Part shown: in pieces, positions 2,803 to 51,116 of the stretch
How positions within the stretch are numbered: position 1 is the stretch's first letter
How the letters are laid out: each line of letters begins with the position of its first letter
NCBI GenBank assembly: GCA_025611195.1
Contig: GCA_025611195.1_4718.2
Strand: one strand, 5' to 3'
Length of the DNA stretch: 64,000 nt
DNA from: a phage
The notes under the pieces: generated by a model
Database searches by the model: none
Seen by the model: only the letters and a program-made list of their open reading frames with translations
What the model was told of the DNA's origin: nothing
Translations under genes and position numbers: made by a program

Positions 2803-3822
2803 TTACACCGCCACCTTAGCCTTGATAGCCGGATGTGATTGATATCCGACGAACACAAAGTCTTCGTAACGGTAATCCGTAATACTTTCCGGTTTACGTA
2901 CGATTGTTAGCTTCGGTAATGGATACGGCTCACGGCTGAGCTGCTCTTTAACCTGTTCGAAGTGGTTGTGATAGATGTGGCAATCTCCACCCGTCCACAC
3001 GAACTCACCAACGTCCATATTCAGCTGTTGGGCAAGCATATGCGTCAGCAACGAATATGATGCGATGTTGAACGGTTTCCCGAGCACTGCGTCGCACGAA
3101 CGCTGGTAAAGCTGACAGGATAAGGCACGTGTTGGTACGTTATGCGCATTCAACCAAAGTTCTGTTTCACTGTGTCGTACATCATCCGTAACCCACTGGG
3201 TTCTTAATACGTCATTGCGTTGAACATAACCAACGCGTTCATCGATGGTGAGCTCGTGGGTATAGAACTGATAAAATGAATGGCACGGAGCGAGATGCAT
3301 ATCGTCTAAATCACCTACGTTCCACGCGCTAACGATGATCCGTCGAGAATCGGGGTCTTCTTTAAGCTGGCGCATCACGTTTGCAATCTGATCGTGATGT
3401 CTAACATACACGAGGTGTTTTAGCATACCGTCATTAAGAATGCCGCAATACTCATAGCCGCGTTGCATCAACTCACGAGTACGTTCTGTATCGTGCGGAA
3501 CAACCACTTTGTAGTCGATCCATTCCCGCCATTGTTTGCCGTAAATCGGTCCTAGATTCCCTTCTTCGTCAGCCCACTCATTCCAAATACGAACACCGTT
3601 ATCTTGAAGATAAGCAACGTTTGTGTCGCCGTTAAGAAACCAGAGCAGTTCGTGGATAACGCTCTTAAGGTGAATCTTCTTGGTGGTTACCAGCGGGAAC
3701 CCTTTCTTCAAGTCAAAACGCATCTGACGTCCGAATACAGAACGGGTCCCGGTGCCTGTACGATCGGCTTTATCACGGCCGTTATCCATGATGTCTTGCA
3801 AAAGGTCCAAATACTGTTTCAT
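2803..3822 (-). CDS. thyA: thymidylate synthase (ThyA family) with two insertions relative to E. coli ThyA
   Basis: Translation has the ThyA signature: [53 protein letters not shown], catalytic [22 protein letters not shown]; ATG at 3822. Confidence 0.9.
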
Positions 3823-4178
3823 TTTAATCCTCTAAGTGTTTCAAGTAGTTCCTGAAATTTGTAACGATATTTAGAATCACTTAACGTGTAACAGCAACCA
3901 CGTAACACGTTATGCGCGTAATCAGCTTGTAAACCACGAACCTTCGGATCCAGTGATAGATTCAATGACGCGTCATCAAAAATCCACGCTTCAATGTTCT
4001 TCTTAGATTCCTTCGTTAACATCGTTTTCACCTCGTAGTAAAAGTAAATAGAGTTTTGTCGAGACGCCCTAATTACATACAACGTAGGTTCTCCTGGCTT
4101 CAGAGAATTCTTAAAATCCGTTAGTTTTGATGGACAGGATAAGACAGCATAAAAGCCTCCCATTACGGGAGGCTTCAT
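3819..4178 (-). CDS. hypothetical protein (119 aa)
   Basis: ORF track; stop overlaps thyA start (ATGA at 3819-3822). Confidence 0.5.
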
Positions 4179-4186
4179 TAATCAGC

Positions 4187-4735
4187 TTATTTCACAAGAA
4201 CAGCGAATTCGAGAACGTAAATAGCTTCATCGTCCATCGGATTTGTTGTGGTATAGCCAACGAAGCAATAACCCATATCCACGATAAACTCGCTAAGTTT
4301 ATCGATGACTGATGCCTCGATGCGATCATCAACAGACAGACGACATTTACGGGTTATGTTTTGCCCGCGAGGAACACCAGCCAACACGGATAGAAAATGT
4401 ACGATCCGATTATTGGTTGTGAACTGCACGTAATCATCGTAGTGCTTAAGGTCTTTCATCGCAGACTCTACCGTCATCCGGCGACCAGGTGATACATACT
4501 CAGAATAAGAATAAGCTGCAATCGTGCGGCGGTCTTCAGTGAGGTAAGTATTCCCTTCGGGATGATAGCTCTCGATTGTTCCGTCTTCATAGGCGACGGT
4601 TACAACAGGTGCGCCGTACTCGTCGCGACCGAAATCAATCTTACATTTATTCGAAAGCGGTAGAACTGTACAAGGCTTTGCATTGTTCTCATCGGGGAGA
4701 TCGTAACCACTCATCATTTTCAAGAACATAGACAT
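4187..4735 (-). CDS. hypothetical protein, paralog of 4822..5355
   Basis: Shares M..NNAKP.T..F.RD..G.P...G..P.GN.Y..D..TIA.Y.YS pattern with the adjacent gene. Confidence 0.55.
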   Translation of the reverse strand: MSMFLKMMSGYDLPDENNAKPCTVLPLSNKCKIDFGRDEYGAPVVTVAYEDGTIESYHPEGNTYLTEDRRTIAAYSYSEYVSPGRRMTVESAMKDLKHYDDYVQFTTNNRIVHFLSVLAGVPRGQNITRKCRLSVDDRIEASVIDKLSEFIVDMGYCFVGYTTTNPMDDEAIYVLEFAVLVK

Positions 4736-4821: not shown

Positions 4822-5355
4822 CTACTTAACGATCGCGATGATTTTGCCGCTCGCACCGGCGTAATATGCTGTTAATTCACCAGTAAACAACTCTTGTAAA
4901 AGACGATTTACGTGACTAACAAAGTTAGGATTGTCTGATTTTACAAACTCGATATTGCGCGTTTGTTTTATATCACGATCGATTAAACGGATTTCCAACA
5001 ACGCACAAATAAGGCGATCGTCGAGTTCACCACTCGCATCCAGCACTTCCCCATACTTCGTAGCACGGACGTCCGCATACATACGGTCAACATCATCCTT
5101 CCCAAAACCACAGGAATAGGCATACGTTGCGATGGTGTTACCATTGTCCATCACATAAACGTTACCACCTGGGTAATCGATAAATCGTTGATCCTTATCA
5201 CCATGAGCGACGAACTCCAGTGTCGGTCTACCCATCGAATCACGGTTGAATTCAATTGTGGTCAAGCGATCTGGTACCACATGCAACGTAAATGGTTTCG
5301 CATTGTTACGATCGCTAGTATCGCAGTTGCCCATTACTTTTACAATAACACTCAT
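4822..5355 (-). CDS. hypothetical protein, paralog of 4187..4735
   Basis: Tandem paralogy visible in translation (see 4187..4735). Confidence 0.55.
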   Translation of the reverse strand: MSVIVKVMGNCDTSDRNNAKPFTLHVVPDRLTTIEFNRDSMGRPTLEFVAHGDKDQRFIDYPGGNVYVMDNGNTIATYAYSCGFGKDDVDRMYADVRATKYGEVLDASGELDDRLICALLEIRLIDRDIKQTRNIEFVKSDNPNFVSHVNRLLQELFTGELTAYYAGASGKIIAIVK

Positions 5356-13968: not shown

Positions 13969-14048
13969 GGATTTGTGTTGGTCCGTTTCGATGCCCATCG
14001 TATTTTATGGATTGTCGAATGACGTCATTTTTAAGGGACATCCCCGAC

Positions 14049-14077
14049 CTCCTCCCCACACCTTTCCTGGGGAGGAG
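14049..14077 (+). terminator. 10-bp hairpin (CTCCTCCCCA / TGGGGAGGAG) followed by TTTTAT, in the 5' leader of the helicase gene
   Basis: Perfect inverted repeat with 9-nt loop then T-run on plus strand; no plus-strand gene upstream. Confidence 0.4.
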
Positions 14078-14111
14078 TTTTATCATACTTTCTATTAATT
14101 CGAGCGCGATT

Positions 14112-16193
14112 ATGTTGGATAGAATCAATCGTTTAATGAACCGAATGACGGTTAAAAATCAGAGTAACAATACCGTGCATATCGGGGGTATCGATGCGTG
14201 GCGTCTTTCAGATGACATTCAGCGTATATGGGGTACCTCCCGATTTATGAAACACATGTTTCGTAATTTCTCTTCTAGTGGACTCAGTCTCCACAACTTT
14301 TACCTTCCCGATTTCGTTTATATTCTCGAAACGATCATCGAAGCAAAGAATACCCGTAGTAACAAACGCATGCTGAAACACCTTATCGAGATACTACTGC
14401 AGGAAACATGGTTGCAAAATACCACCATCGAGCAGCCTGCAATCCTCGATAAAGCACGCATGAACAAAATGCTAACGCTCTCTTTGTTCGATTATCAAGA
14501 TGAGTTCATCGACATCTATAACCGTAATGTACCTAAGTATCGACTGAAAGGATACGTGTGTGCGATGGGTGCTGGTGCTGGTAAAACGATCACAGCATTG
14601 GCATTAAGCGCCGCAATGAACGTCGATGTATTTGTGGTCTGCTGCCCTAAGAACACCATGCGTTCAGCATGGCAATCCGATGTAAACAAAGCCATCGTTG
14701 ATCCTGCAACAGAAACCGCGTTCTGGTCGGATACAATGCCACCATCACAGCTGCAGAAAAGCGATAAATACTATTTTTTACATTACGAATCGATGGGCTT
14801 ATTAAACGATGTGATGATCAAGCATAAACGCACAGCGAAGCGCGTTCTTATTGTTGTTGACGAAAGCCATAACTTCAACGACAAGAACAGCCAACGTTCC
14901 CAGCGACTGGTTGATCTTGTACAGACAATGCGTCAAACCATGAATGCGGATGTGCACGTCTTGTTTATGTCGGGTACGCCTGTTAAACAGATGGGTTCTG
15001 AGATGATCCCATGTTTAGGTTGTATCGATCCGATGTTCCAAGGACAGGTGGTCGATAGCTTCAAAGCAATTTACGGTTTAACCAGCAGCCGTGCTAACGA
15101 TATCCTCAGACATCGTCTTGGGTTCATGATGCATGTCGTACCTAAAGAGGCTTACCGTAAAACCCGTCCGGAAGTTCAGGACGTTTACGTGAAGCTCCCT
15201 AACGGTAGCGATTATACCATCTCGAGCATTCGTGACGACATGGCGATATTTGTACGCGATCGGGCGAAGTATTACAAGGATAACTGGGGACATTACCGAA
15301 AGATTTTTGATGATGCCTTGGACTACTATCGTAAGACTATTCGTACCGACGGAGAACGTAAAGAGCTATCTCGATACGAATCGATTGTTGCGCGTTTCCA
15401 GAAAGGTTACGATCCCGTCAGAGACAAAGAAGATGCGATGTTCTGCAACGCGTTTGAAAAACGTTCCATCATGCCAGTTCTTCCTTCTGATTTAAGGGTT
15501 GCTTTCAAAGACGCCAAGAGCGTCATCAAGTACGTTGGGTTGAAAATTCAGGGTGAAGCGTTGGCGCGTGTTCTGGGCGCAGCGCGCATTCGGTGTCATG
15601 TCGACATGGTGGAATACATCGACTTCGAAGAGTACATCAATAACGCCGAAGCCAAAGTGTTGATCTTCACATCGTACGTTCAGGTGGTTGAACGCGTCGA
15701 TAACATGCTTCGTGATGCGGGCTTCTTACCGGAACCCATTTACGGGAAGACCAACAAAAACATCAACCAAATACTTGCCCGTCTACGCGACGATCCTGAC
15801 AGCGGTCCCGCTATCGCAACATTTGATAGCTTAGCTGAAGGGGTTCCGATGCTGATGTGTAATGTGGGTCTTTTCCTGAACAACCCGTGGCGCTCATCCG
15901 ATGAAATCCAAGCCATCAGCCGTCTCGATCGTGTAGGGCAAACGCAACCTGTTCGGATTTATCGTTTCATGTTAGATACAGGAAGCGAAGGTAACGTTTC
16001 TACACGTAGCCACGAAATCATGGAGTTAAGTCGGCAGCTTGTTGAAGAAATCACGGGCGTCAAATACGTGGTGAACAAGCAAGATGATGTTAACTTGCAG
16101 GAAACGTTAGCGATGGAAGGATACGATCAATACGTTACCGTAAACACCTCGGAATACGATATTAAACCACGACCTGCGTTCTTGGAATGGTAA
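14112..16193 (+). CDS. SF2 helicase / SNF2-like ATPase
   Basis: Walker A GAGAGKT, DESH (motif II), SGTP (motif III), C-terminal helicase domain; start set to first ATG after the leader hairpin (ORF track 14007 is probably too long). Confidence 0.65.
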   Translation: MLDRINRLMNRMTVKNQSNNTVHIGGIDAWRLSDDIQRIWGTSRFMKHMFRNFSSSGLSLHNFYLPDFVYILETIIEAKNTRSNKRMLKHLIEILLQETWLQNTTIEQPAILDKARMNKMLTLSLFDYQDEFIDIYNRNVPKYRLKGYVCAMGAGAGKTITALALSAAMNVDVFVVCCPKNTMRSAWQSDVNKAIVDPATETAFWSDTMPPSQLQKSDKYYFLHYESMGLLNDVMIKHKRTAKRVLIVVDESHNFNDKNSQRSQRLVDLVQTMRQTMNADVHVLFMSGTPVKQMGSEMIPCLGCIDPMFQGQVVDSFKAIYGLTSSRANDILRHRLGFMMHVVPKEAYRKTRPEVQDVYVKLPNGSDYTISSIRDDMAIFVRDRAKYYKDNWGHYRKIFDDALDYYRKTIRTDGERKELSRYESIVARFQKGYDPVRDKEDAMFCNAFEKRSIMPVLPSDLRVAFKDAKSVIKYVGLKIQGEALARVLGAARIRCHVDMVEYIDFEEYINNAEAKVLIFTSYVQVVERVDNMLRDAGFLPEPIYGKTNKNINQILARLRDDPDSGPAIATFDSLAEGVPMLMCNVGLFLNNPWRSSDEIQAISRLDRVGQTQPVRIYRFMLDTGSEGNVSTRSHEIMELSRQLVEEITGVKYVVNKQDDVNLQETLAMEGYDQYVTVNTSEYDIKPRPAFLEW

Positions 16194-16198
16194 TTAAG

Positions 16199-16227
16199 AA
16201 GCTCTGCCTGATGTCAGGCAGAGCTTT
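16199..16227 (+). terminator. rho-independent terminator after helicase gene
   Basis: AAGCTCTGCCTGA-TG-TCAGGCAGAGCTTT: about 12-bp stem followed by T-run, 6 nt after the stop. Confidence 0.6.
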
Positions 16228-16292
16228 ATGCTGCGTTCGCTGCAAAATCGTATGACGTATATGCGTTGTACTTATTAAATAGGACTGAATAC

Positions 16293-17744
16293 ATGAAACT
16301 CAAACAAAGCTGGAAAGACGAACTTCTTGCGTTAGTAAATAGCAAAAACAGTTTACAGCTGACATTAGACGACGTAAAATTTGAACTAACTGAACCGGTA
16401 AGCGAAGTGCCCGGAACGGTTACTGTCACGATCAAACCGAACGATGATAGCCGTTACTTTAACGAGCAGTCTCTGACCTACGTTCGTCGAGACATCGCTA
16501 AAAACTTCACCGGGATCCCGTTACGGGTTATCGTTAAAAATGATACCGCCGTAAAGGATATCATCAACACGATCGCTGAACGTTACGGATTGGTATTTGA
16601 CACAACCGTCGACTTCCTCGAATCCGAGCTGAATAAACAAATTACGTTCGCAGACACCGGTATTAAAGACATCACGGTTCCGGTTGCAAACACGTCTTAT
16701 GTTTGGGCTGGTAATCTTCAGTTCAACATTGCTAACGATACGTTAAGCTTGATTACGATCATCAAGAAAACCGATCTTACGAATCTGGTTTATCTGGATG
16801 GTGTTGAAGCTGATACAACGGGATCGTTACTATTAGCAACGACCTCGGTTATCGACGAAAACGGAAATACCGAAACAACTGAAGGTGTCCTTGACGCCGC
16901 GCACTTCCAGAATGTCCTGAACGTCATGGTTCGTTATGGTGATATTACCAACGAACAAATGCAACAAGCAATGCAGACAATTAACCAAAGCGAAGACGTT
17001 CGTAGAGTAGAGGTGAGATCATACGGTGACGCCGAATTACTGGTAACCACCAAGAAAGATTGGGCTATCGGTAGCCTTAAGGGTGCTATGGCTGTTGGAC
17101 GCGCTTCACCTAAACCGATCCAATACGTTCTTAAAACAAAAGGCGGCAGCATTATATTATCATTAAATGGTTGGACAAATGTTTCCATCGATTGGGGTGA
17201 TGGGAATAAGACGACGGAGGACTCAGTCGATAATGAATATCGGCACAATTATACGGACACTACAGAACGTACGATCGTCGCTACGGGTACCCCTACCAAC
17301 GTTGAAGATACAGAGGTACAGCAAAGCTTCACCGGTGGTAACATTACAGAAATCGTTGACTGGAACAACGGATTACCTAAGGCCCCATCATTACTTGCGG
17401 CGAACAGTTTAACTAAGGTTCCTAATTATATCCCGGCATACTGGACATCGTTAGAAGGTATGTTTACGAGATGTAGCGTTATTAACGACGTGAACATCAC
17501 CAAATGGAACACCCGCAACATTACTTCAATGAAGGACCTCTTCTACGGTTGCGCTGCGTTCAACCAACCGATCGGTTCGTGGGATGTTTCGTCTGTTAAG
17601 AATATCGACAATATGTTGTCTGGATGCTTCGCGTTCAATCAGGATCTGAGTGGTTGGACATTCCCGGCAGGCACTTCACACATTAACTACGACGCCATGA
17701 CCGCCGTGTGGAGTACTGAACACAAACCACACTTCACCGAGTAA
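16293..17744 (+). CDS. putative virion/surface protein with C-terminal DUF285 (BspA-like) repeats
   Basis: C-terminal repeats of the form MF..C..FNQ.I..WDVS.V.N...M; ATG at 16293 with AGGA RBS (ORF track start 16266 is a TTG). Confidence 0.55.
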   Translation: MKLKQSWKDELLALVNSKNSLQLTLDDVKFELTEPVSEVPGTVTVTIKPNDDSRYFNEQSLTYVRRDIAKNFTGIPLRVIVKNDTAVKDIINTIAERYGLVFDTTVDFLESELNKQITFADTGIKDITVPVANTSYVWAGNLQFNIANDTLSLITIIKKTDLTNLVYLDGVEADTTGSLLLATTSVIDENGNTETTEGVLDAAHFQNVLNVMVRYGDITNEQMQQAMQTINQSEDVRRVEVRSYGDAELLVTTKKDWAIGSLKGAMAVGRASPKPIQYVLKTKGGSIILSLNGWTNVSIDWGDGNKTTEDSVDNEYRHNYTDTTERTIVATGTPTNVEDTEVQQSFTGGNITEIVDWNNGLPKAPSLLAANSLTKVPNYIPAYWTSLEGMFTRCSVINDVNITKWNTRNITSMKDLFYGCAAFNQPIGSWDVSSVKNIDNMLSGCFAFNQDLSGWTFPAGTSHINYDAMTAVWSTEHKPHFTE

Positions 17745-17762
17745 AAAAAATAGTTAGCATAT

Positions 17763-17795
17763 CTTCCTCCCTACCCATAACGGGCGGGGAGGAAG
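17763..17795. terminator. bidirectional hairpin (CTTCCTCCC / GGGAGGAAG) between convergent genes
   Basis: 9-bp inverted repeat between the plus-gene stop (17744) and minus-gene stop (17813). Confidence 0.55.
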
Positions 17796-17812
17796 GTTTA
17801 TGTGGCTATGAC

Positions 17813-18151
17813 TTAGAACCAGAGTTCTTTCATGAGGTAGGCTTCCATATCGTAGATAAGCCACTCGTCAGGAATTTCTAAAGGATCGTCTTCGGTTAAG
17901 GTCAGCATGTGCAGGGCGAACGCACGCTTAATATCGTTCAGCAGTTTCTCGTCGTCGTAACCTTCAGGTAACTTACGGTCTACCAGTTGGGTTTGTTTAT
18001 AGACAGCACAGAACGCTTCTGGGCTGTGTTTGTCCATCGGAAATTGTTCAGCAGCCTGAACCATCGTCAACGTCCAGCTTACAACATTGTAGCGCTCACC
18101 GTTAATTTCACTGAACTGATCATCGATTAAACAGATTTGTTGTACGTTCAT
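17813..18151 (-). CDS. hypothetical protein (112 aa)
   Basis: ORF track; ATGA overlap with upstream gene. Confidence 0.45.
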   Translation of the reverse strand: MNVQQICLIDDQFSEINGERYNVVSWTLTMVQAAEQFPMDKHSPEAFCAVYKQTQLVDRKLPEGYDDEKLLNDIKRAFALHMLTLTEDDPLEIPDEWLIYDMEAYLMKELWF

Positions 18152-19110: not shown

Positions 19111-20685
19111 TTACAATTCAAAATCTTCATCGATAACGCGCTGGGTAAGCACTTTGTCGCTGAAGAACTCCACCTTGCGCTGATGGTATTTACGATGCGC
19201 TTCGATAGAAGTACATACCAGATACCAGAAGGTTGGCGTCATTCCTTCAAACTTCCCTTTCAGCTGACGCAGTCGCCCCAACACCTGAATGTTACCGGTT
19301 CGTGACCCCATCGCTAACGTCATGAACGCCATCACCAAGTCAGGAAGGTCGATACCCGTACCTGCCGATTTCACCGTCGTAACGCTAATATCGTTATCCA
19401 ACAAGACCATGAAATCTTCTTCAGCCGTATAAGGACCGATCTCTAACTCAGGAATACGTTCACTAAGGTAATGCGACAACGACTTACACATATCGACGGT
19501 TGCACAATACACCAGCATCTTCATACCTTCCTGATACTGGTTCATGAAACCTTTGATGATAACCGTATAGATGAAGTTAAAATACGCGAGTTTGAGTTGC
19601 TTGTTCTTCATGATAGACTGTTCGAATATCGTGTGAGAATAAGAACCCCCAAACCCTTTATATCTGACTTTATCTGTACTGCGTAGTCGATACGTCACGG
19701 CATTTACCGCAATGTATTTCTTGTATTCGCCTTTCGCATAACGGGCTTCTTTCGGATACATCAAATACAACATCCGCTCGATGAACGGATCATCGGACAC
19801 CGCCGTTGCTGACAGATAGATGATTTCCGGAATACTAGCGTAACACTTGACCTTAAACAAGAAATGCAATGCTTCATGGCACTCGTCATGAATCAGAAGG
19901 CCTATGCCGGTCTTTTCCCAAAACTCAGCGGGATGGAAGGCATATGGCGCAACGCAGTTATTCTTCTCGTAGTCCGCAATATAACGTTGGAACATGTTCA
20001 AGGAGAACAATGCGATTTTGAAGTCGAGTTCGCCTTGTTCAACCAAGGTTTGAAACTCCAACATACTGTAACGAGGAATGTCAGGATGCGGTGGATCCTC
20101 CTTAGCGTTCCCGCGTATCTCGATAACATCCCCTGGTTCCATCCCGAAGAAGTTCAGTAGTGAGCTTCGCCAACCTGGCATGTATCTCGGCGACAGAATG
20201 ATACCCGTCCGCACACCGCGTCGGAAGGTAATCTCCTGCGACATGGCCGTTTTTCCCGACCCCGTTTGAGCGGTGTTTAGGCTCATTCTGAAGGGGGTAT
20301 CCTTACCCCCGTCCATGTACTCCAACCATTCTTGCTGATCTTCACGCCATGGGAACTTCCATTTCTTTACGAACTCCACTTCTTTACCTGGTGCCGGATC
20401 GTGGTAAACGATTTCCAACCACTCTTTTCGTATCCCTCGGGAAAAGATAAAATCCAAAAACGATTTCAACTGTTCGCGGAGTAAGTATACCTCACTATAA
20501 TCGCTTCTTGCCGCGGCATACGTGTTTATGGTATCGGTAACCATTCTCCGTGTACGAGGGTCGCGCCGTTTCCTCAGATGCAAACAACGGTCTCGAAGGT
20601 AATGGCCGATAAGATGGGCAAATCGAAGTCCGTATCCGCTCAGCCTCATGCCGTGCGAGAAGACATCGATACGAGCTAACTTCAT
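19111..20685 (-). CDS. DExH-box SF2 helicase
   Basis: Motif I AQTGSGKT, motif II LLIHDECHEA, motif III LSATAV, motif V TVKSAGTGIDLPD, motif VI QVLGRLRQ; start overlaps stop of beta-prime-like gene (ATGA). Confidence 0.7.
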   Translation of the reverse strand: MKLARIDVFSHGMRLSGYGLRFAHLIGHYLRDRCLHLRKRRDPRTRRMVTDTINTYAAARSDYSEVYLLREQLKSFLDFIFSRGIRKEWLEIVYHDPAPGKEVEFVKKWKFPWREDQQEWLEYMDGGKDTPFRMSLNTAQTGSGKTAMSQEITFRRGVRTGIILSPRYMPGWRSSLLNFFGMEPGDVIEIRGNAKEDPPHPDIPRYSMLEFQTLVEQGELDFKIALFSLNMFQRYIADYEKNNCVAPYAFHPAEFWEKTGIGLLIHDECHEALHFLFKVKCYASIPEIIYLSATAVSDDPFIERMLYLMYPKEARYAKGEYKKYIAVNAVTYRLRSTDKVRYKGFGGSYSHTIFEQSIMKNKQLKLAYFNFIYTVIIKGFMNQYQEGMKMLVYCATVDMCKSLSHYLSERIPELEIGPYTAEEDFMVLLDNDISVTTVKSAGTGIDLPDLVMAFMTLAMGSRTGNIQVLGRLRQLKGKFEGMTPTFWYLVCTSIEAHRKYHQRKVEFFSDKVLTQRVIDEDFEL

Positions 20686-51063: not shown

Positions 51064-51086
51064 GCTTTCTCCTACGCGGCATAAAA

Positions 51087-51106
51087 GCCTGCCCCGAAGG
51101 ACAGGC
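51087..51106 (-). terminator. rho-independent terminator (stem GCCTGTCC, UUCG loop, then UUUUAU on minus strand)
   Basis: Minus-strand GCCTGTCC-TTCG-GGGCAGGC-TTTTAT directly after the stop at 51117. Confidence 0.6.
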
Positions 51107-51116
51107 TCGATAGAAC

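Follow-up and report, generated by a model that had tools for sequence, protein, structure and literature searches.

A Goslar gp161-like protein of a jumbo phage combines a DUF7941 module with DUF285 leucine-rich repeats and is a candidate modular virion adhesin

The gp161-like gene and the modules of its product

The DNA analysed here is a 64,000 nt stretch of phage sequence (contig GCA_025611195.1_4718.2 of NCBI GenBank assembly GCA_025611195.1; hereafter the window), and our subject is one gene within it, at positions 16293-17744 of the plus strand, which encodes a 483 amino acid protein with a DUF7941 module at its N-terminus and DUF285 repeats at its C-terminus. The window belongs to a Goslar-like, nucleus-forming jumbo phage: the 5.1 kb neighbourhood of the gene shares 93.9% nucleotide identity with Escherichia phage vB_EcoM_Goslar, which the literature places in Chimalliviridae, and the genome is Goslar-like yet distinct from Goslar. 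The protein shares 91.7% amino acid identity with Goslar gp161 (HOV27_gp161, YP_009820846.1), also of 483 amino acids; the two have the same architecture, length and neighbours and differ at about 8% of residues. Goslar and three related loci (L004, L005 and L006) have one gene order in common, consisting of an HD protein, a helicase (plus strand), the gp161-like gene (plus), a 112 amino acid gene (gp162, minus), a 297 amino acid gene (gp163, minus) and a second helicase (minus), and public data hold approximately 55 clusters of 480-485 amino acid orthologues at 61-96% identity. A first-pass annotation of the window, made from the sequence alone, had placed the gene on a plus-strand island, and this is so, as the minus-strand blocks on either side enclose just two plus-strand genes, that for the upstream SNF2/DEAD helicase and the gp161-like gene; in a scan of the window the GC skew is positive at 15-18 kb only. 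The features of the gene and its product are as follows.

16293-17744, plus strand: coding sequence, 483 amino acids, from the open-reading frame list; orthologue of Goslar gp161 (YP_009820846.1)
16281-16284, plus strand: probable Shine-Dalgarno sequence AGGA, 8 nt 5' of the ATG, read from the sequence
16293-16736, plus strand: DUF7941 globular N-terminal domain, residues 1-148; presumed virion anchor
16737-16865, plus strand: DUF7941 linker, residues 149-191; predicted to be disordered in the monomer, strongly conserved in sequence
16866-17003, plus strand: short helical region, residues 192-237, where the sequence variability begins
17004-17324, plus strand: beta-rich region, residues 238-344, with a conserved IDWGDGN motif; fold unclassified
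17325-17741, plus strand: solenoid of leucine-rich repeat (LRR) type, residues 345-483, including the repeats at 389-463; presumed ligand-binding tip

The coding sequence is intact, running for 483 codons from the ATG at 16293 to a TAA stop that ends at 17744. The program-called reading frame opens further upstream, at a TTG at 16266, but the homologues all begin MKLKQSW, and the ATG at 16293 is the start common to the Goslar annotation and all of them. The AGG core of the Shine-Dalgarno sequence is present in Goslar, L006 and L004, and not in L005.

The DUF7941 module was missing from the first-pass annotation, and it is this module which would tie the protein to the virion. DUF7941 (PF25613) matches residues 4-213 with an e-value of 1.6e-24 (87.3 bits against 27; profile positions 5-221 of 276), and the N-terminus also matches PHROG 1037 and 2935, both described as "virion structural protein". 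We modelled the protein with AlphaFold2, as single chains only, from a 23-sequence alignment (mean predicted local distance difference test score, pLDDT, 75.7), and the N-terminal domain was predicted as an alpha/beta fold at a pLDDT of ~65-80. When this domain was compared with the PDB by Foldseek the sole significant match was chain 9xqd_0 (e-value 1.3e-4, probability 1.00), over 148 aligned columns against a modelled chain of 150 residues, with a template modelling score of 0.56 when normalised to the target; a sequence search with phiKZ gp127 identified this chain as PHIKZ127. Both phiKZ gp127 and gp126, as well as Goslar gp22 and gp23, score as DUF7941, and the N-terminal domain is 34% identical to Goslar gp22. 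The gp127 match came from fold comparison only, since PDB sequence searches with the protein and with the 23-sequence family profile returned nothing relevant; a direct hhalign comparison of the family profile with phiKZ gp127 aligned residues 10-149 on 15-152 too weakly to be relied on (probability 7%, e-value 0.005).

The linker that follows has a pLDDT below 50, yet its column entropy among orthologues is only 0.2-0.4 (0.38 for the linker, compared with 0.14 in the N-terminal domain and ~1.0 downstream), and several of its columns are invariant across paralogues. A linker that is predicted to be disordered but is conserved would be expected if it folds onto a partner, as has been proposed for gp22. 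Beyond it the protein departs from its better known relatives: gp22 and gp127 end in a DUF7941 C-terminal globular domain, whereas the window protein matches PF25613 only as far as profile position 221 of 276, with helical, beta-rich and LRR regions in place of that domain. Helices are predicted at 202-214 and 220-237 (pLDDT ~65-84 over 202-237), followed by strands at 238-334 in the beta-rich region, where the pLDDT ranges over ~58-95 and exceeds 80 from residue 281, and residues G302, D303 and G304 are invariant. The motif IDWGDGN...H.Y had led us to suspect a PKD/Ig domain here, but the region matched no Pfam family, PKD included, and a single BFVD match to a "PKD domain-containing protein" was non-specific; its fold was kept as unclassified.

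The first-pass annotation had recognised DUF285/BspA-like repeats in the C-terminal third of the protein. The repeats are real and far above chance: DUF285 (PF03382) matches residues 385-456 with an e-value of 5.3e-22 (78.2 bits, the gathering threshold being 25), and TIGR02167, the NCBIfam model of the 26-residue PARCEL repeat, matches in two stretches by the small margin of 32.4 bits over a cut-off of 30. The canonical repeats, three of 25 residues each, follow one another in register (389-413, 414-438 and 439-463), the peptide quoted in that annotation (GMFTRCSVINDVNITKWNTRN...SGWTF) being residues 389-457, and a 20 nt direct DNA repeat at 75 nt spacing mirrors the 25-residue period. Since these three repeats are preceded by about two degenerate turns, judged by eye, the tract fills about the last quarter of the protein and not a third. 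Structure prediction, which had been named there as a way to check the proposal, placed them in an LRR-fold distal domain. Residues 345-483 are predicted to form a curved solenoid of five to six turns, each of 20-30 residues, with a pLDDT over 90 except in the last three residues (75), which superposes on solved LRR proteins at a sequence identity of only 10-13%.

The same annotation had described the repeat motif as one usually seen in bacterial surface proteins, which is correct for the type of repeat and not for the protein as a whole. PARCEL/DUF285 surface proteins and the window protein have in common a repeat of 25-26 residues with the pattern MF..C..FNQ.I..WDVS.V; unlike them, the window protein combines just three canonical repeats with a phage virion anchor and lacks any signal for secretion or of a lipoprotein. 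No signal peptide, lipobox, membrane segment or hydrophobic segment, of the kind that would mark a bacterial surface protein or lipoprotein of the "BspA family" named in RefSeq, was found in the 483 residues (Kyte-Doolittle mean of -0.33 for the N-terminal 30 residues, maximum 19-residue mean of 0.89), and the first cysteine is residue 394. PARCELs are named for the palindromic coding DNA of their repeat tract (Röske et al. 2010), which was not detected here, as 17300-17744 contained no inverted repeats at a seed of 7 and a minimum length of 12, settings under which more degenerate palindromy is possible. The protein also differs from BspA-type LRR proteins such as Bacteroides ovatus BACOVA_04585 (PDB 4FS7) in the low identity given above and in having no Pfam match to LRR_5 (PF13306, the BspA type) at e-values up to 1, at which only DUF7941, DUF285 and a sub-threshold Rad60-SLD were reported. 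Some other jumbo phages are very rich in DUF285; the Vibrio phages pir03, sm033 and C-ZP2022, for example, have matches at 16-38 places per genome.

Evidence that proteins of this kind are carried by the virion comes from Goslar, for which Basu et al. (bioRxiv 10.64898/2026.04.21.720040) report a virion structure together with quantitative mass spectrometry of virions. They count ten DUF7941 proteins (gp22, 23, 31, 33, 34, 86, 91, 92, 93 and 161) and list gp161 as DUF7941 plus LRR. Virion proteomics, another check named in the first-pass annotation, exists for a 92% identical orthologue: liquid chromatography-tandem mass spectrometry of CsCl-purified virions detected gp161 by 27 unique peptides, 53.8% coverage and 133 spectra, with estimates of 74/111/174 copies per virion (their Table S4). 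Of the two outcomes that would have counted against the first-pass annotation, a missing DUF285 match and absence from virion particles, neither was observed, the second being judged from this orthologue. Purified gp22 formed filaments in negative stain, the only DUF7941 protein for which filament formation is shown, whilst the interactions of the others are only predicted and the gp22 linker is predicted to dock on the next protomer. The authors put forward a "DUF7941 fibre cloud", anchored at the baseplate, that would serve in recognising the host, gp161 included (Basu et al.). In phiKZ, gp126 and gp127 were fitted at the outer peripheral baseplate, each star-lobe carrying a single gp127 where the gp139 band ends (PMC13250141).

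A conserved anchor, a variable tip and broken alleles

The two ends of the protein evolve in different ways. Amongst orthologues the N-terminal domain is 88-98% identical, whilst identity in the helical, beta-rich and LRR regions falls to 26-53% in alleles P0053-P0056, and in the helical region (192-237) to 26-33% in P0054-56. Sliding comparisons of nucleotide sequence gave 49-58% identity between L004 and the window at 16900-17700 and 62-66% between L006 and the window at 17100-17500, with the flanking genes at 90-98%, and the distal half of this gene is the most variable stretch of the whole 8 kb neighbourhood. The identity trough begins and ends abruptly, an indication that the cassette has been replaced through recombination. 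The ratio of nonsynonymous to synonymous substitution rates (dN/dS) is 0.03-0.15 in the anchor and 0.38-0.44 in the distal domains. Against Goslar alone it is 0.08 for the anchor and 0.39 for the beta-rich and LRR regions, and the proportion of nonsynonymous differences (pN) is 0.054-0.056 in the C-terminal two-thirds, approximately three times the 0.016 of the anchor; a 52-codon helical segment has a pN of 0.056 and no synonymous differences (pS 0). The anchor is therefore under strong purifying selection, whereas the tip is replaced by recombination.

In the side tail fibres of lambda (Stf) and the distal fibres of T-even phages the N-terminal anchor is conserved and the C-terminal tip can be exchanged. 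The gp161-like protein resembles these and other modular receptor-binding proteins, such as phiKZ gp131-135, in its conserved attachment end and mosaic distal end, in having paralogues with alternative tips and in tolerating loss-of-function alleles. It differs from them in fold and assembly, having no trimeric beta-helix, coiled coil or Peptidase_S74 chaperone domain, and its anchor is DUF7941 and not a fibre shaft. The gp131-135 paralogue family is described in the phiKZ atlas (PMC13250141). A literature search for phage receptor-binding proteins with BspA or LRR domains came back empty.

Loss-of-function alleles were found in two forms amongst the relatives. On L010 the gene (3001-4452) is colinear with that of the window and carries a nonsense codon at position 277; its truncated product makes up two sequence clusters of 13 and 3 members, and the L010 contig itself is recorded in two samples. 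On L009 (2543-3816) a 2 nt insertion at codon 151, at the boundary of N-terminal domain and linker, is combined with a 180 nt deletion, and the resulting 271 amino acid product occurs on eight contigs. Each lesion leaves a separate anchor reading frame and LRR reading frame. As such alleles circulate, the intact protein appears not to be required for the propagation of those phages, which suggests that it behaves as an accessory adhesin. Laboratory lambda, with its frameshifted side tail fibre gene, is a comparable case of tolerated loss.

Relatives have in addition a paralogue of 584 amino acids, in which the same anchor (~56% identity) is joined to about seven DUF285 repeats. Its gene adjoins a 175 amino acid DUF7941 gene and a 967 amino acid tail-fibre gene with a Peptidase_S74 domain (L002, 8001-13348). 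We rejected the possibility that this class is an allelic form at the gp161 locus, because it occupies a different locus on the same contig as a 480 amino acid orthologue. It is not present in Goslar, and tblastn searches of the 64 kb window with both halves of the gp161-like protein found no paralogue, the other DUF7941 genes being located outside the window. Another homologue, P0066 (775 amino acids), has a second DUF285 block.

Alleles that are 92-96% identical to that of the window were found in assemblies labelled Salmonella enterica, Shigella flexneri, Enterobacter hormaechei and Escherichia coli, on phage-sized contigs of ~235-243 kb. This suggests that Goslar-like phages are present across several genera, either in a carrier state or as contaminants.

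A candidate adhesin with an exchangeable tip, and its alternatives

Our preferred reading, which we consider reasonably probable, is that the gp161-like protein is a modular virion adhesin, anchored by DUF7941 at the peripheral baseplate or on DUF7941 filaments, with an LRR tip that is retargeted by recombination and binds a bacterial ligand. We favour it because DUF7941 and DUF285 are joined in a single reading frame with virion-protein PHROGs on the N-terminus, and because of the orthology with Goslar gp161, its detection in virions, the contrast between anchor and tip and the paralogue in a tail-fibre cluster. In such a protein the globular domain (1-148) and linker (149-191) would attach it to the peripheral baseplate or to head-to-tail filaments of the gp22/gp23 type, the helical region, beta-rich region and LRR solenoid would together form an exposed and exchangeable tip, and the tip would bind a ligand on the bacterial surface and may so contribute to adsorption or host range. 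The first-pass annotation had suggested a host-recognition or adsorption-related protein, a suggestion which is supported by the DUF7941 anchor with its gp127 fold, the LRR distal domain and the mosaic of conserved anchor and variable tip, and which agrees with what Basu et al. propose for gp161; we infer both that gp161 itself sits on the fibre network and that its LRR binds the host.

Several observations weigh against this reading. The literature that we searched gives no direct evidence of receptor binding, of an effect on adsorption or of the position of the protein on the particle. No DUF7941 density is present in the Goslar baseplate maps (Basu et al.). Model confidence for the N-terminal domain is only moderate, and its fold match to 9XQD is partly a comparison of one prediction with another, since gp127 in that entry is an AlphaFold model docked into 4.4-4.7 Å maps (PMC13250141; PDB 9XQD). 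The broken L009 and L010 alleles count here also, as does the occurrence of 92-96% identical alleles in Salmonella, Shigella, Enterobacter and E. coli assemblies, owing to which the gp161 allele does not obviously track host genus. The gene, moreover, sits amongst replication and transcription genes, outside the tail cluster, and the Goslar virion preparation also held chimallin (~126 copies), PhuZ (~171 copies) and fragments of the phage nucleus (Basu et al.), so a filament-forming or filament-bound protein could have co-purified off the virions.

Alternatively, the protein could be attached to the virion and yet be no receptor-binding protein, its LRR adhering to mucus, biofilm matrix or non-host cells and so enriching the phage where its hosts live, as is thought for Ig-like decoration proteins, with no specific role in adsorption. 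Its apparent dispensability in relatives with disrupted alleles, the near-identical alleles in assemblies of several host genera, the wide ligand range of LRR folds and a copy number (~111) well over the six-fold stoichiometry of a baseplate would all fit such an environmental adhesin; however, a tip that recombination exchanges as sharply as this one is seen more typically where a phage is in an arms race with the changing surface of its host, and the paralogue is located in a tail-fibre cluster. We regard this alternative as rather unlikely. A slightly less likely alternative is a purely architectural part of the baseplate or DUF7941 network, in which the LRR makes contacts with other phage proteins, for example as a cap, a branch point or a dock for fibres. 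In its favour, the LRR is a classical module for contacts between proteins, the N-terminal domain has a homologue in phiKZ gp127, itself a structural piece of the baseplate, and the neighbouring gp162 is found at a similar copy number (~127 vs ~111), but contacts with conserved phage partners should conserve the domain that makes them, whereas the distal half is the most variable in the neighbourhood and its disruption is tolerated.

We think it improbable that the protein acts inside the infected cell, for example in assemblies associated with the phage nucleus, bouquets or filaments, and only co-purifies with virions. Its gene is embedded amongst genes for helicases and the non-virion RNA polymerase, chimallin, PhuZ and nucleus fragments were carried along in the virion preparation and no cryo-EM density has been assigned to gp161. 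On the other side, other chimalliviruses have DUF7941 relatives that carry the annotation of virion structural protein, the model of the phiKZ baseplate includes gp127, the paralogue belongs to a tail-fibre cluster and the pattern of conserved anchor and variable tip has no obvious intracellular rationale. Very improbable, finally, is an acquired bacterial BspA/DUF285 surface protein or lipoprotein displayed on the infected cell, for example in superinfection exclusion, even though DUF285 is best known from surface lipoproteins of Mycoplasma and Listeria: the N-terminus is a chimallivirus virion module, there is no LRR_5 match, and a lipoprotein was rejected for want of any export signal, the first cysteine coming only at residue 394.

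If the protein is indeed an adhesin with an exchangeable tip, a further proposal, which we offer as tentative, is that gp161-type proteins are the exchangeable LRR tips of a self-assembling, micron-scale DUF7941 network that radiates from the baseplate. This would be a long-range device for host capture unlike classical tail fibres, recombination would retarget the network by swapping 3' cassettes of the gene and of the 584 amino acid paralogue, and the nonsense and frameshift alleles would be natural on/off variants of it.

The finding is in its essentials already known, since the orthologue is annotated in RefSeq and the architecture, virion association and proposed role are given in the 2026 preprint; what goes beyond the preprint is the recombination hotspot, the contrast in selection between anchor and tip, the paralogue in the tail cluster of relatives and the natural knock-out alleles. 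These bear on the way in which jumbo phages that form a nucleus locate and attach to a host, for which the DUF7941 fibre cloud has been proposed only very recently, and the gene is one of only three for Goslar-type DUF7941 proteins with a recognisable binding domain. A delimited hotspot together with natural knock-outs therefore offers a convenient handle on the fibre-cloud model, and both could matter for the engineering of jumbo-phage host range in therapy.

Flanking hairpins and neighbouring genes

The gp161-like gene had been described as bracketed by strong terminators in the first-pass annotation. The hairpins on either side are strong and conserved, although their U-tract is short (UUUAU), owing to which a consensus terminator scanner called neither of them; folding with shuffled controls showed both. 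Their positions, and those of similar sites across the window, are as follows.

16198-16227, plus strand: upstream stem-loop with a 13 bp perfect stem followed by TTTATGC; -24 kcal/mol, z -4.9
17757-17803, both strands: downstream stem-loop between the convergent gp161-like (plus) and gp162-like (minus) genes
4148-4174, minus strand: hairpin-TTT(T)AT site
4944-4972, plus strand: hairpin-TTT(T)AT site
14049-14084, plus strand: hairpin-TTT(T)AT site
16201-16230, plus strand: hairpin-TTT(T)AT site
51080-51107, minus strand: hairpin-TTT(T)AT site

None of 200 shuffles was as stable as the upstream hairpin, which is kept in four related loci (Goslar and three relatives), with a compensatory change of T-A to C-G in L005, and whose equivalent is annotated as a terminator in the Goslar record. 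It is likely to terminate transcription of the helicase gene and to mark the 5' limit of the gp161-like transcription unit. The downstream hairpin is kept in the same number of loci (Goslar and three relatives) and is stable on both strands (plus, -27.9 kcal/mol, z -5.1; minus, -26.1 kcal/mol, z -5.9), so is likely to be a bidirectional terminator. In L005 (6455-6528, compared with 17745-17812 of the window) the core of this hairpin is reverse-complemented (CCCCGCCCGTTATGGGTAGGG against CCCTACCCATAACGGGCGGGG) within the same outer stem, and its inner palindrome has apparently been flipped. The sequence TTTATG lies directly 3' of each flanking hairpin. A GC-rich hairpin followed by TTT(T)AT occurs at five sites in the window against 0.7 in shuffles, with ATGC as the continuation at three of them; some of these sites escape the consensus scanner, although it did report the hairpin at 14061-14075. 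A hairpin plus TTTAT appears to be the usual terminator design of this phage.

The upstream block AATCGTATGACG is kept in all five loci, and was rejected as a recurrent promoter motif with nine matches against 9.2 expected, whilst a scan of the window for sigma-70-like promoters remained at background (11 sites against 9.9 expected). Goslar-type phages use their own RNA polymerases.

The helicase gene upstream was called by program at 14007-16193 (plus strand, 728 amino acids), with the terminator-like hairpin at 14049-14084 inside its 5' extension. The start annotated in Goslar is equivalent to an ATG at 14112 (693 amino acids) and the calls in L004 and L005 are of 648 amino acids, so the true start is probably at 14112 or later. 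On the other side of the gp161-like gene, the convergent reading frame at 17813-18151 (minus strand, 112 amino acids), with which it shares the intervening hairpin, had no family in Pfam or PHROG. Its Goslar orthologue gp162 was present in virion preparations at ~127 copies (9 peptides, 58% coverage), compared with ~111 for gp161, and the two could be partners or co-assembled proteins.

The SF2 helicase at 19111-20685 (minus strand), the orthologue of gp164, is 524 amino acids long in the window, Goslar and L006, whilst it is 753 amino acids long in L004 (7823-10084), L005 (7806-10067) and L009 (5184-end), and 876 amino acids long in L010 (5822-end), where it has a weak LAGLIDADG_3 match. This suggests an intein or homing-endonuclease insertion in the longer forms, which is absent from the window. 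At 19900-20100 of the window there is a dip in nucleotide identity, to 74-78%, in the comparisons with Goslar, L006 and L005. The genomic region looks non-structural, and several small proteins whose genes are close to the gp161 locus are plentiful in the virion preparations of Goslar (Table S4), namely gp158 (~926 copies) and gp168 (~219 copies); the orthologues of both appear to lie in the minus-strand blocks of the window, on either side of the plus-strand island.

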